A stretch of 64,000 nt of DNA from NCBI RefSeq assembly GCF_003991155.1, contig NZ_CP031293.1; one strand, written 5' to 3'. How positions within the stretch are numbered: the stretch's first letter is position 1; each line of letters begins with the position of its first letter. This document shows, piece by piece, positions 29,063 through 33,762 of this stretch. Below the pieces are notes generated by a model. The model saw only the letters and a list, made by a program, of their open reading frames with translations, did no database searches and was not told the origin of the DNA. The stretch comes from Escherichia coli (lineage in GTDB: Bacteria > Pseudomonadota > Gammaproteobacteria > Enterobacterales > Enterobacteriaceae). A program made the position numbers and the translations under genes.

Positions 29063-30565
29063 ATGAATATCAGAAAACTGTTTTGTCCGGGCAACACCCC
29101 CCGGATTTTATTGTTTTTATTCTTTTTTGTTGTTTCTGCAATAACCACAATTGCATGCGGATACACTGAGAAGAATGCAACAGGAAATGTGCTGCTTCTG
29201 TTTCTCCTTCTGCTCCTTGCATACAGAAATACCCTCACATCCATTACAGCGCTGTTATTTCTGTTCTGTTGTGCACTGTATGCGCCTGCCGGTATGACGT
29301 ACGGTAAAATCAACAACAGTTTTATTGTCGCGTTGTTGCAGACCACAACTGATGAGGCAGCGGAGTTTACCGGGATGATTCCTGTTTATCATTTTCTGGT
29401 CAGTGCCGCGATTCTGGTATTCATGGTGATTTTCTGGCGAACACACCACCGCGGTCACCGTAACTGGCTGGCACTGCTGCTGTTCGTATTATGCTCAGTA
29501 AACAGCTGGCCGTTGCGGATGGTTAAAGGAACTGTTGTGGGGACAACTGACACATTGCGTGAAATGCAACATTATAAACAACTGAGTCAGCACGGGGCTG
29601 ACAACTGGAAAATCCTGCCGGGAACACCGTTATATGACACAATTGTTATTGTCACTGGTGAGAGTGTGCGCAGGGATTATATGTCGGTATATGGCTATCC
29701 CGTGCCAACCACGCCGTGGCTGAATACAGCTCCCGGTTTATTTATTGACGGCTATACATCGGCAGCAGCCAGTACCGTACCTTCCCTGAGCCGGACACTG
29801 ATTTATGACTATGAGCAGAACCCTGACTCCGGCAACAACATGGTGGCGCTGGCAGCAAAAGCAGGATACAGCACATGGTGGATATCCAATCAGGGAAAGC
29901 TGGGGGAGCATGATACACGCATCTCTGTTATTGCTTCTGATGCGGAGCATACCGTTTTCCTCAAGAAAGGCAGCTTTGCTTCCCGTAAAACGGATGACAT
30001 GTTGTTGTTACAGGAAACAGAACGTGCACTGGCGGATAAATCCTCTCCGAAGGTGATATTCCTGCACATGATGGGGTCTCATCCGAACCCGTGTGACCGG
30101 CTTCACTCCTGGCCGAATCATTACCTGGAGCAGTATCCCCGAAAGGTTGCCTGTTACCTCGCCAGCATCAGTAAACTGGATAACTTTCTCGGTCAGCTTG
30201 ATGGTATCCTTCGCCGGCATTCCCGTCATTTCGTCATGCTTTACTTTTCTGACCATGGGCTGTCGGTCAGCGACAGTGCTAATCCTGTTCATCATGATGG
30301 TCATGTGCAGGGAGGCTACAGCGTTCCCCTGATTATTACCGCCAGTGACATCACGTCTCATCAGTCCGTCAGCAGAAAAATCAGTGCCCGTCATTTCGCA
30401 GGTATTTTTCAGTGGCTGACCGGCATTCGTACTGAAAATATACCGCCATTCAATCTACTGACAGACGAAGATAATGAACCCATTATGGTTTTTAACGGAG
30501 AGAGGAATGTACCGGCAGACAGTCTGAAACCGCAGCCTCTGATTCTTCCGGTCAAGGGAAAATAA
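29063..30565 (+). CDS. Sulfatase-family phosphoethanolamine transferase (EptA/YhbX/OpgE-like), 500 aa
   Basis: N-terminal multi-TM region followed by a periplasmic alkaline-phosphatase-superfamily domain (..IVIVTGESVRRDYMSVYGY.., ..HMMGSHPNP.., ..YFSDHG..). Confidence 0.7.
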   Translation: MNIRKLFCPGNTPRILLFLFFFVVSAITTIACGYTEKNATGNVLLLFLLLLLAYRNTLTSITALLFLFCCALYAPAGMTYGKINNSFIVALLQTTTDEAAEFTGMIPVYHFLVSAAILVFMVIFWRTHHRGHRNWLALLLFVLCSVNSWPLRMVKGTVVGTTDTLREMQHYKQLSQHGADNWKILPGTPLYDTIVIVTGESVRRDYMSVYGYPVPTTPWLNTAPGLFIDGYTSAAASTVPSLSRTLIYDYEQNPDSGNNMVALAAKAGYSTWWISNQGKLGEHDTRISVIASDAEHTVFLKKGSFASRKTDDMLLLQETERALADKSSPKVIFLHMMGSHPNPCDRLHSWPNHYLEQYPRKVACYLASISKLDNFLGQLDGILRRHSRHFVMLYFSDHGLSVSDSANPVHHDGHVQGGYSVPLIITASDITSHQSVSRKISARHFAGIFQWLTGIRTENIPPFNLLTDEDNEPIMVFNGERNVPADSLKPQPLILPVKGK

Positions 30566-30924
30566 GCGTAATGTTCATCACCAGATTATGTACGATGAGT
30601 TTTCCACTGTTTATAGCAATTATCTTGCTAATAACCAGACAGGAGTAACCAGACCAACCGAAAACACCGGGGAGGTGATTACCCGCTGGCAGAGGAAATC
30701 CGGTTTTTTTTGATGTCAGCCATAACGTGTTTGACAATAAAACATTATGAAAGGGTGTTAATGAGTCCATGGGATAATTCATAAAAATAATTTATTGTGT
30801 TATCCTTTTCAAAAGAAATATTCAGAAGATAACCCCTGGCTGACAACCAGGGGAAGGGGACATTAACAGTGTTATTATTGGTGGATAAATTATTACTTGT
30901 GTGCAGGATACACTAATGCAATAT

Positions 30925-31998
30925 CTACTGATACTGTATGCCAGTATGTTTCATGCCTGCCGCTGAAAACGGCAATATCCAGGGCCAGACATATTCACCA
31001 TTCATATTTCTGCATTTCTGTACAATTTTCTCAGAAAGCGTCTCATCAATTCTTTCACGCAACTTCTCCTGCTGTCTTAAAATACTTTCGCATATTTCGA
31101 AATCATCTTCCTGCATCAGCATTTCGGCGCATTTAATGATTTCTGCCCGTTCATGCAGCACAGAGGAATGATTATAGAGCCAGTTTACAAACAGCAATGC
31201 TTCCGGATATTGCCCCCATAACGGGTGGTATGTGGCATAATAATCTTCGGCAGTATCCGGACCGCCTGAAAAGTTATGCCATACAGCAAGTGGAAATGGA
31301 TGCAGATTTCCGCACAGTATTTCTGCGATGTAAGTATTTGCCGCAAAGCCGCGACGAAATGCAGTTGCAGCTTTTACCAGTTCCCCATTAAGAAAATGCA
31401 GAAGGCCGAGTTCATACCAGTAAGGTGAAAATTCATCTGCATGTTCCTGCAGTATATGGCGTGCCTGTTCATGAGCGCCAGTGCGTAACAGTTCCGGTCC
31501 CAGTAGCCAGCGTGCACCATGATTATCTTCGGGATTGTAATCCAGTATTTTTTCAATGAGCATGATGGCATCCTGATGACGCCGTAAATGTGCATTTGCC
31601 AGGATTGCCGCATAGAGGGCACGAAGAAAAGGTCGGTTGTCAGGATGTATCCAGATGATTCTGCCACTGAAACCTTCAGGGATAAGACGATTGCCAACTG
31701 CCAGTCCTTTAAGGGCAGCATTCAGCGCCTTACGCGGGGCATTCTGCTCCAGAAATACGTATGCCAAGTGAGCGTGTACATCAATAAAGTCATTCTCCTG
31801 TCGGGCAAGGCGCCTGAGTTTGTTGATGTAACTTGTTTCGCTGATTTCATCCGCATCGTATGCATCAATCAGTTCTTCAAACTCATCCAGCAACGAGCCA
31901 AACCAGGTTTCCGGAAATATGAAACAGCCCTGGTTATCGTTCACTTCAAAGCGTAATTTGCCAGTCATATTCTGAACCTGTAAAAAAGGATGGACCAT
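30925..31998 (-). CDS. Hypothetical protein (357 aa), predicted all-helical/TPR-like; start may be Met 31968
   Basis: Long intact ORF adjacent to the integrase; no family recognised. Confidence 0.5.
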   Translation of the reverse strand: MVHPFLQVQNMTGKLRFEVNDNQGCFIFPETWFGSLLDEFEELIDAYDADEISETSYINKLRRLARQENDFIDVHAHLAYVFLEQNAPRKALNAALKGLAVGNRLIPEGFSGRIIWIHPDNRPFLRALYAAILANAHLRRHQDAIMLIEKILDYNPEDNHGARWLLGPELLRTGAHEQARHILQEHADEFSPYWYELGLLHFLNGELVKAATAFRRGFAANTYIAEILCGNLHPFPLAVWHNFSGGPDTAEDYYATYHPLWGQYPEALLFVNWLYNHSSVLHERAEIIKCAEMLMQEDDFEICESILRQQEKLRERIDETLSEKIVQKCRNMNGEYVWPWILPFSAAGMKHTGIQYQ

Positions 31999-32223
31999 AA
32001 TCTGCAGGCTATAAAAATTGTGATGCCTGGCATCGGTGTCCTTTTATTGTCCGGGATTAACGTTGCCCATGATAATACAGTGAATCCTGTTCTGTGGTAA
32101 GACGTTGAGTTATTGAATGAGAACCTCAGCCTGGCTGATGGTTCCGCCGGCATAAAAAAGAAATTGATTGAGGCGGGTGCTCTTCCCCTTAAGAGGAAGA
32201 GCATGTGTGTAAATGGTGTTCAG

Positions 32224-33489
32224 TCACCTTTTCAGTGGATTGTTAACTTTTGCATATTCAAACGGACTGATACCCTTATCTCTGTTTGCATCCAGAAAAT
32301 CTGCCCACCATTGCAGCATAAGCCGACGTTCTTCCAGATGTTCTGCTTTATGAATATACGCGGCACGTACTCCGTTGCGCTCCTGATGACTCATCTGACG
32401 TTCAACCGCATCTCTTGACCATAAACCGGATTCAATCAATGCACTGCACGCCATCGCCCGGAATCCATGGCCACAGACTTCCTTGGTTGTGTCATACCCC
32501 ATCACTCTGAGGGCCTTATTTACGGTATTTTCACTGATTGGTTTACGCGGGTCATGTGCTCCCGTAAAGATCAGACCATTTTCACCAGCCCATGTCTGAA
32601 GTTCTGTCAGTATGGCTACAGCCTGTTTGCTGAGTGGCACAAGATGTGGTGTTCGCATCTTGGAGCCCCGGTGTGAGAATTTTACCCCTGGCAGAGGTTT
32701 GCGTTCGGCTGGAATAGTCCACATGGCATTGTCAATATCAATTTCAGACCAGCGGGCGTATCTGAGTTCACTGGAACGAATAAAAACCAGTAAATTCAGC
32801 ATAACGGCAAGCCGGGTGACAGGCTGACCTTTATAACTGTTAATACGCGACAGAAGTTCAGGCAGACGTGAAAGATCAAGAGCGGGGCGATGCTGGCGTT
32901 TTACCGTAGTCAATGCGCCAGCCATATCCAGAGCAGGATTATATCTGATGATGCCAGACTGTACGGCATAACGCATTACGGCAGATATTCTTTGCTGCAG
33001 ACGACTGGCGATTTCATAAATTTGTTTAGCTTCTGCAGCACGAACAGGGATAAGCAGATCCGGGGTATTGAGTGTTGTGATATCCCGGTTGCCGATAAAG
33101 GGGAAAACGTGTGTTTCGAGGCTTTTGAGTACTTTATCGCTGTGTGATTGTGCCCATTGTTTATTACTGGCATGCCAGCGTCGTGCAATATGTTCAAAAG
33201 AGAGCTGTAAATCAGGGACTACTTTTTTAGCTCTTTTCTGTTCGCAAGGGTCAATCCCCTCCGAAATCAGTTTTCGGGCCTCATCCCGTTTTGTACGAGC
33301 TTCGGAGAGAGAAACTTCTGGATACACACCAAGTGCCAGAGTCTTCTCCTTACCCAGAATACGATAACGGAGACGCCAGTAACGGGAACCATTAGGATGT
33401 ACCAGCAGGAACATGCCAGCCCCGTCAGTGAGTTTATAAGCCTTGTCAGTGGGCTTTGCAGCCCGGATTTTTGCGTCAGTCAGTGCCAT
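32224..33489 (-). CDS. P4-type (CP4-57-like) tyrosine integrase
   Basis: 421-aa ORF MALTDAKIRAAKPTDKAYKLTDGAGMFLLVHPNGSRYWRLRYR... with C-terminal catalytic region; immediately downstream of tRNA-Phe in the same orientation. Confidence 0.92.
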   Translation of the reverse strand: MALTDAKIRAAKPTDKAYKLTDGAGMFLLVHPNGSRYWRLRYRILGKEKTLALGVYPEVSLSEARTKRDEARKLISEGIDPCEQKRAKKVVPDLQLSFEHIARRWHASNKQWAQSHSDKVLKSLETHVFPFIGNRDITTLNTPDLLIPVRAAEAKQIYEIASRLQQRISAVMRYAVQSGIIRYNPALDMAGALTTVKRQHRPALDLSRLPELLSRINSYKGQPVTRLAVMLNLLVFIRSSELRYARWSEIDIDNAMWTIPAERKPLPGVKFSHRGSKMRTPHLVPLSKQAVAILTELQTWAGENGLIFTGAHDPRKPISENTVNKALRVMGYDTTKEVCGHGFRAMACSALIESGLWSRDAVERQMSHQERNGVRAAYIHKAEHLEERRLMLQWWADFLDANRDKGISPFEYAKVNNPLKR

Positions 33490-33686: not shown

Positions 33687-33762
33687 TGGTGCCCGGACTC
33701 GGAATCGAACCAAGGACACGGGGATTTTCAATCCCCTGCTCTACCGACTGAGCTATCCGGGC
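33687..33762 (-). tRNA. pheV: tRNA-Phe (GAA anticodon), 76 nt including CCA
   Basis: Reverse complement reads GCCCGGATAGCTCAGTCGGTAGAGCAGGGGATTGAAAATCCCCGTGTCCTTGGTTCGATTCCGAGTCCGGGCACCA; locus assigned as pheV from flanking yqgA/speC. Confidence 0.95.

Follow-up and report, generated by a model that had tools for sequence, protein, structure and literature searches.

In a 64,000-nucleotide stretch of Escherichia coli DNA (RefSeq assembly GCF_003991155.1, contig NZ_CP031293.1; hereafter the window), the open reading frame (ORF) at 30925-31998 beside an integrase gene is, with near certainty, sisA, the pheV-island allele of the shiA-like inflammation suppressor genes. An earlier note on this DNA had proposed the ORF as a candidate for an undescribed function. 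That novelty does not stand: the gene is already described, has been named since 2009, is present in virulence-gene catalogues, and has been the subject of genetic work in CFT073 and, under the name shiA, in Shigella (PMC13340028, PMC7545054, PMC2978726). Its product is predicted to be a soluble solenoid of the tetratricopeptide repeat (TPR) type. The best joint explanation, which combines identity as sisA and this fold with a cytoplasmic scaffold role and an indirect effect on inflammation, appears to us probable on balance.

The integrase-proximal ORF is sisA

SisA of uropathogenic CFT073 was reportedly introduced as shiA-like inflammation suppressor A by Lloyd et al. in 2009 (Infect Immun 77:5322), and ShiA of the Shigella flexneri SHI-2 island is said to go back to Moss (1999) and Ingersoll (2003, 2006). 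The sisA quantitative PCR (qPCR) primer sequences of Lloyd et al. 2009 are printed in Hagan et al. 2010 (PMC2978726). Both primers fit the ORF with 0 mismatches, at 31727-31746 (-) and 31444-31468 (+), and converge to give a 303-bp amplicon on the window sequence. Among the 26 loci compared, the reverse primer matched only two pheV-type copies (L001 and L004); the forward primer is common to selC-type alleles as well. The sisB-specific reverse primer, whose sequence is printed in PMC3256949, matches a selC allele (locus L003) and has no match in the window within 3 mismatches.

At the protein level, the window product is identical to that of the CFT073 pheV-island gene C_RS16890 at 345 of 347 residues, and the two substitutions, H67Y and R129Q, are conservative. 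Identity to the cluster representative of S. flexneri ShiA (P0021) is 288/347 (83%) in a gap-free alignment; the published identities to S. flexneri ShiA are 83.3% for SisA and 96.8% for SisB (PMC13340028). The 'tetratricopeptide repeat protein' that the Prokaryotic Genome Annotation Pipeline (PGAP) places at the pheV position is SisA (PMC13340028). The 90%-identity cluster to which the window protein belongs has 2684 members, some of them labelled 'ShiA-like protein', and its top match in AFDB is Q6KD66, 'ShiA homolog [Escherichia coli]', at 99% identity.

We also compared gene order with that of known copies. The tRNA-Phe gene of the window adjoins yqgA, speC, nupG and mltC, and the region is identical in E. 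coli ECONIH2; these flanking genes and the exact match identify the locus as the pheV tRNA island. In both the window and CFT073, the order is tRNA-Phe (pheV), P4-type int and then sisA. The two islands differ further on. In CFT073 the transferase gene is truncated by an IS66 element and followed by hly, whereas the window has an intact transferase gene followed by a gene for a Hek/Tia-like outer membrane protein and the papG-III operon. S. flexneri ShiA is likewise 347 aa long and encoded by the first gene after a tRNA-associated integrase, but it belongs to a different allele class, and its island lies at selC with aerobactin cargo. The SisB or selC-type ShiA-like proteins (REL606 ECB_03517 and those of the LAA, SE-PAI and tia-PAI islands) share about 86-87% amino acid identity with SisA. 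They come from the same kind of module, in which int, the TPR gene and a convergent phosphoethanolamine transferase gene are often followed by tia, hes or leoABC (PMC7371111). However, their nucleotide identity to sisA is only 85-89%, and the site of the sisA reverse primer is missing. In the stretch examined at the aspV end of CFT073, sisB was not found. The window product shares with the ShiA/SisA/SisB family its length of 347 aa and the place of its gene directly after the integrase of an island at a tRNA gene, here at the left end of a pathogenicity island of uropathogenic E. coli.

ShiA has elsewhere been called a 'putative quinone reductase' (PMC7545054). We rejected this name, as no oxidoreductase similarity appeared in Pfam, NCBIfam or fold searches.

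sisA is a real gene with a 347-residue product

The earlier note described an intact ORF of 357 aa. The maximal ORF is indeed intact. On the minus strand it begins at the first ATG (31998) and ends at 30925, and it follows int, which has the same orientation, after 225 nt. RefSeq places the start of sisA at the second ATG (31968), which gives a product of 347 aa. The N-termini of 60 aligned homologues agree with this start, and ShiA-like proteins have a published length of 347 aa (PMC3256949). Because these three sources concur, the 357-aa form, which is used by UniProt entry Q6KD66 ('ShiA homolog'), is the maximal ORF and probably not the real product.

The GC content at third codon positions (GC3) of sisA is 0.43, compared with 0.58-0.65 in adjacent core genes. 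Between sisA and divergent alleles, dN/dS is 0.13-0.18, which indicates purifying selection. A full-library profile search found 243 family representatives at E <= 1e-30. Given a GC3 below that of the core genes and a low dN/dS, these sequence measures indicate that sisA is a real gene, horizontally acquired and under selection.

SisA is predicted to fold as a TPR-type solenoid

SisA is a protein of 347 aa and 40 kDa with a pI of 5.4, in which sequence analysis found no signal peptide, hydrophobic segment or membrane segment. An AlphaFold2 model built with 60 homologues has a mean predicted local distance difference test (pLDDT) score of 92.9 and a predicted template modelling (pTM) score of 0.88. 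The model is nearly all helical, with an N-terminal beta-hairpin followed by 17 helices, and it shows the antiparallel helix-pair repeats of a solenoid that define the TPR superfamily fold. Pfam gave weak TPR matches for the window protein (best TPR_16, E = 0.0017; none at E <= 0.001), and 14 of 60 family members matched TPR_19 at E <= 0.001. When the family profile was compared with PDB sequences, the TPR domain of OGT was matched at E = 5.8e-12; a phmmer search of PDB sequences with the window protein alone gave no match. No enzymatic or catalytic domain was found in SisA by Pfam, NCBIfam or fold searches, and NCBIfam returned nothing above its curated cut-offs for the window protein. The earlier description of an alpha-helical, TPR-like protein with no catalytic motif holds. 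It is very probable that SisA adopts a compact all-alpha, TPR-type solenoid, that is, a scaffold fold.

The predicted fold differs from generic bacterial TPR scaffolds. MamA, PilF, YbgF and LapB lack both the conserved N-terminal beta-hairpin of SisA and its C-terminal helical extension with invariant Trp residues. The name 'LapB', given automatically to two homologues, was rejected: SisA has no membrane anchor of the LapB type, and the template modelling (TM) score between SisA and LapB is about 0.3. We also rejected the type III secretion system (T3SS) chaperone SctY (17.9 bits against a cut-off of 70) and the PEP-CTERM protein PrsT (21.1 bits against a cut-off of 312).

A fold comparison of the predicted structure, which the earlier note had suggested, gave as best structural match the C-terminal domain of eukaryotic Rqc1/TCF25, whose fold the model of SisA shares. 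Sequence evidence agrees, by an indirect route. In hhalign, the SisA family was joined to a large bacterial group of TPR proteins of about 280 aa with 99.9% probability (E = 4.5e-31, 245 columns). All five members of this group that were tested matched Pfam Tcf25 (best E = 4.4e-11), as did most of its 120 listed relatives; no eukaryotic TCF25 was among the 120 listed matches of the short-group profile. The literature searched makes no mention of a link between SisA and TCF25/Rqc1.

The group of about 280 aa comprises at least 360 clusters, with Anaerolineales, Dehalococcoidia and Nitrospirae among its named sources. One of its genes (L020:7001-7846) has ordinary chromosomal neighbours, and genes for DnaJ and HSP20 lie about 6 kb from it.

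Homologues are carried by mobile elements of many bacteria

Full-length homologues with 35-55% identity to SisA occur in Morganella, Xenorhabdus, Azovibrio, Verrucomicrobium, Methylobacterium and Rhizobium. Across the 60-homologue alignment 18 positions are invariant, four of them Trp. A homologue is carried by 80 plasmids, 47 of them conjugative, in Serratia, Klebsiella, Aeromonas, Pseudomonas, Photobacterium, Rhizobium and other genera. The earlier note had regarded the gene as mobile-element cargo. This is well borne out, by the pheV island here and by islands, plasmids and transposons for the homologues. No partner gene was common to the 13 non-E. coli contexts examined. As judged from these sequence contexts, the SisA family is stand-alone mobile-element cargo that is clearly not confined to animal pathogens.

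In four of these loci, a ShiA-like gene with 52-56% identity to SisA sits next to a serine recombinase gene. The start of the recombinase gene overlaps the stop of the ShiA-like gene by 4-34 nt in Morganella (L009:141-4901), Serratia pQC19 (L023:5001-6577) and Klebsiella pKPC_CAV1193 (L024:1813-6577), and in Xenorhabdus (L014:72-3442) the recombinase/resolvase gene begins 4 nt after the ShiA-like gene. A divergent Tn3-family transposase gene lies upstream in the Morganella, Xenorhabdus and Klebsiella loci; in Serratia pQC19 the upstream gene encodes an unnamed hypothetical protein on the same strand. Because of these short overlaps and the 4-nt gap, the spacing suggests that the ShiA-like gene and the Tn3-family resolvase gene form an operon with co-transcription and translational coupling. 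This arrangement is not described in the literature searched.

Such linkage raises the question of whether SisA-like proteins are accessory factors of the adjacent site-specific recombinase, in island excision and integration or in the resolution of Tn3 cointegrates. The stop-start overlaps, the Xenorhabdus gap and the upstream transposase genes in three of the four resolvase loci speak for this role. So does the E. coli locus, since tRNA-Phe, int and sisA are contiguous in 1361 complete E. coli genomes, with int and sisA on the same strand, and the integrase is also the neighbour at selC. However, many homologues have no adjacent recombinase, and SisA has no DNA-binding domain. The gene also persists in the absence of an intact integrase: in E. 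coli strain 746, an insertion sequence (IS) element takes the place of the integrase, and the gene is kept in a non-tRNA context with its transferase pairing retained. The position of first cargo after int may merely reflect island history. We consider a recombinase accessory role very improbable.

A second alternative is that SisA serves in conflict between elements and hosts, as a single-gene anti-phage defence, anti-defence or anti-plasmid function; the earlier note had listed the gene as a defence or anti-defence candidate. What speaks for this proposal is that distant homologues have neighbourhoods of the mobile-element or defence-island type. Homologues lie near Fic, an AlpA-like helix-turn-helix protein, a helicase, a methylase and a NERD-kinase in Azovibrio; near transposases, AbiEii and HipA in Verrucomicrobium; near MqsRA and a relaxase in Methylobacterium; near TIR and DruA in a metagenome-assembled genome; near Schlafen-type and AAA genes in a region resembling an integrative and conjugative element (ICE); and in a DISARM-like cluster with Helicase_C, MZB and PLD. 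Moreover, the gene is always found on mobile elements (tRNA islands, conjugative plasmids, ICE-like regions and Tn3-family transposons). Direct support for the proposal was not found. The window protein matched 0 families of the PADLOC-DB 2.0 defence models at E <= 1, and PHROGs gave no informative match. No SisA homologue was present in 50,697 phage records, and a phage-borne anti-defence role is therefore disfavoured. SisA carries no effector domain such as a nuclease or NTPase, its gene has no conserved partner, and two homologues lie in ordinary-looking chromosomal neighbourhoods. Because defence islands are so gene-dense on mobile elements, adjacency to defence genes is weak evidence. A function in conflict therefore seems to us a distinctly unlikely one for SisA.

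Two further observations concern the wider family. In Rhizobium rhizogenes (L010:7705-8990, L011:286-1655), the homologue lies 51 nt downstream of a paralogue of ribosomal protein S21 and near an imuA-imuB-dnaE2 mutagenesis cassette, a DNA ligase gene and an SRAP gene. The S21 neighbour is notable given the fold resemblance to Rqc1/TCF25, and it is a single case. In addition, a SisA-like domain (E ~1e-42) is found in the multi-domain bacterial proteins P0266, P0243, P0248, P0251, P0262 and P0258. P0266 is a fusion in which a 'plasmid pRiA4b ORF-3-like' domain (PF07929) stands N-terminal to it, and P0243 and P0248 look similar by eye. P0251 joins an N-terminal region without an assigned family to the SisA-like domain; P0251 and P0262 have a Cys-rich, zinc-ribbon-like C-terminus, and P0258 has none. 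These long matches (450-650 aa) had been suspected of being TCF25-like, and we rejected that reading, as they are bacterial fusions, in one case of PRiA4_ORF3 with a SisA-like domain and in another of an N-terminal region, a SisA-like domain and a Cys-rich end.

SisA may act as an intracellular scaffold

According to the literature (PMC13340028, PMC7545054), shiA weakens the inflammatory response in models of Shigella infection, where fewer polymorphonuclear leukocytes (PMNs) and T cells are recruited, and sisA and sisB of CFT073 dampen the early kidney and bladder response in murine urinary tract infection. During human urinary tract infection, sisA is expressed in the urine of women (PMC2978726), and anaerobic conditions induce shiA along with the effector OspI. 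In a 2026 study, a 5.5-kb deletion from hes to sisA led to less virulence, biofilm and adhesion (PMC13340028); because the deletion spans both genes, the effects of sisA and hes are inseparable. In enteroaggregative E. coli (EAEC), the gene is equally frequent in cases (35%) and controls (36%), and the non-pathogenic laboratory strain REL606 carries it (PMC3256949). The literature searched, which did not cover the primary papers Ingersoll 2003, 2006 and Lloyd 2009, gives no molecular mechanism for SisA or ShiA.

We favour a reading in which SisA would act inside the bacterium as a scaffold for protein-protein interactions. Its closest structural relative, the C-terminal domain of Rqc1/TCF25, holds partner proteins in place on the ribosome quality-control complex. 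Reduced inflammation would then be an indirect outcome of altered bacterial physiology or an altered surface, and not of a secreted immunomodulator. A cytoplasmic scaffold is favoured because SisA has no export signals, is predicted to be a non-enzymatic solenoid, is strongly conserved in environmental bacteria and shows no disease association in EAEC. That SisA is intracellular and its anti-inflammatory action indirect is, taken by itself, a claim for which we see the chances as evenly divided. The convergent transferase is a possible route to altered lipopolysaccharide (LPS) and inflammation. The phenotype cannot depend on it, since the strain in which that phenotype was described, CFT073, has a truncated copy.

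The name 'inflammation suppressor' implies something different, namely that SisA is a host-directed effector that leaves the bacterium and directly disturbs innate immune signalling. The in vivo phenotypes related in reviews, the expression of sisA in patient urine and the induction of shiA alongside OspI would all fit an effector, and TPR proteins are common as protein-binding modules. Yet SisA has neither a signal peptide nor a hydrophobic segment, and its sole secretion-related match is the T3SS chaperone model that scored far below its cut-off. Homologues with 35-55% identity and the 18 invariant residues occur in soil and water bacteria and their mobile elements, and the gene is present in non-pathogenic REL606 and as frequent in EAEC controls as in cases. 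A review, moreover, calls ShiA a predicted cytoplasmic protein (PMC7545054). We regard direct action of SisA on the host as unlikely.

Several observations weigh against the favoured reading of SisA as an Rqc1-like intracellular scaffold. No neighbouring gene was conserved across the family contexts examined that would point to a bacterial partner protein. The window protein has no match to Tcf25 (PF04910) in Pfam, and only 2 of 60 SisA family members reach Tcf25 at E <= 0.001. Searches of PDB sequences with the family and short-group profiles did not retrieve Rqc1 and gave generic TPR proteins instead; the same profiles score the OGT TPR domain at E ~1e-10 to 1e-12. For these reasons, cross-talk between members of the TPR clan could account for the Tcf25 signal in the sequence profiles. 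The reference structure is also a model: in 9OFV, the C-terminal domain of Rqc1 is an AlphaFold prediction that was docked into density of low resolution (PMC12215860). Finally, suppression of host inflammation by this family is known here through secondary citations of the primary papers.

Rqc1 binds the 60S subunit through a basic, disordered N-terminal region and has the Ltn1 RING and ubiquitin as partners (PMC12215860). SisA has no N-terminal extension and lacks this ribosome-binding region; its N-terminus is acidic, with 2 basic and 5 acidic residues in the first 30. Ltn1 and ubiquitin are both absent from E. coli. Because the window protein lacks a Tcf25 match, the profiles miss Rqc1, the 9OFV domain is modelled, and the N-terminus and partners of Rqc1 are missing, we do not file SisA as a member of the TCF25 family. 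By its modelled structure and profile links, SisA is similar to the C-terminal scaffold of Rqc1/TCF25, with which it may share a distant origin. More tentatively, and with the odds against it, a large family of bacterial proteins could be related to TCF25/Rqc1, with ShiA and SisA as the branch that mobile elements carry. The primary role of such a branch would be intracellular, for example in the control of translation or proteostasis or in element-host conflict, a sub-branch would be coupled to the Tn3-family resolvase, and the anti-inflammatory phenotype would be secondary.

Distribution and island context

Among 5426 complete E. coli genomes, 1961 carry the gene, in up to 5 copies each, and the E. 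coli copies split into two identity bands (>=99% and 80-90%). In 483 complete genomes, sisA and an intact transferase gene are contiguous. Divergent alleles at selC lie directly after the integrase; the transferase gene is next, followed by tia, leoABC or other cargo. This is the 'tRNA-integrase-shiA-orf-tia' module known from SE-PAI, LAA and the tia island (PMC7371111, PMC7545054). The arrangement reported in the earlier note, in which the ORF is convergent with the transferase gene and next to int, agrees with the gene positions in Table 1.

Table 1. The sisA locus of the window and the features around it
Feature	Position	Strand	Details and basis
sisA coding sequence, stop codon included	30925..31968	-	347 aa; RefSeq start and N-termini of homologues
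In-frame extension upstream, 10 codons	31969..31998	-	completes the 357-aa maximal ORF; probably untranslated
Sigma-70 promoter-like site TTACCA-17-TATTAT, int-sisA intergenic	32072..32100	-	consensus scan 9/12; pattern match only
Terminator-like hairpin, 9 pairs (6 G-C), 72 nt 3' of the sisA stop	30833..30853	-	pattern match only
P4-type tyrosine integrase gene, upstream of sisA	32224..33489	-	421 aa; ORF and RefSeq annotation
tRNA-Phe (GAA), pheV insertion site	33687..33762	-	ARAGORN and annotation of the identical ECONIH2 region and of CFT073
Phosphoethanolamine transferase gene, convergent with sisA	29063..30565	+	500 aa; ORF and annotation; context, functional link putative

The 500-aa transferase is the 'sulfatase ORF' of SE-PAI, and its pairing with sisA recurs at selC islands. 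An LPS-modifying transferase that adjoins an 'inflammation suppressor' could confound the phenotypes of island deletions. Between the two genes lies a 76-aa ORF at 30552-30782 (-), whose product RefSeq annotates in several genomes as hypothetical (WP_001335175.1 and relatives) and which is kept even where the transferase gene is missing (locus L003). This ORF is downstream of the terminator-like hairpin and overlaps the 3' end of the transferase gene by 14 nt, and it may be spurious.

Beyond the transferase gene, the island cargo includes genes for a Hek/Hra/Tia-family outer membrane protein at 28126-28881 (+), a 122-aa hypothetical protein at 27555-27923 (+) and a MarR-type regulator, SfaX/PapX, at 25439-25990 (+), as well as the PapG-III adhesin gene at the end of the pap operon, at 24169-25176 (+). 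The annotation of the identical ECONIH2 region marks 26442-26821 (-) as a frameshifted 'GTP-binding protein' pseudogene. From gene order, this pseudogene is a putative leoA remnant of an ancestral int-shiA-transferase-tia/leo module, a suggestion we make because the genes beyond the transferase gene at one selC island (L016) are leoA, leoB and leoC. Deeper in the island, the matching genome carries pgtABCP, degraded contact-dependent-inhibition genes (cdiA / VENN-motif) and nanXY.

Implications for the shiA/sisA family

About one in three sequenced E. coli carries sisA; the identity of the ORF is ordinary, and the interest lies in the mechanism of a cytoplasmic-looking TPR protein. Two of our results go beyond the literature searched: the homologues on mobile elements of non-pathogens, including the operon with a Tn3 resolvase, and the structural match to Rqc1/TCF25. 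The spread on such elements, the resolvase operon and the Rqc1/TCF25 resemblance suggest that the accepted label 'immunomodulator' names a phenotype and not a function. Resolving which of the two the label describes would alter the use of sisA and shiA as virulence markers.
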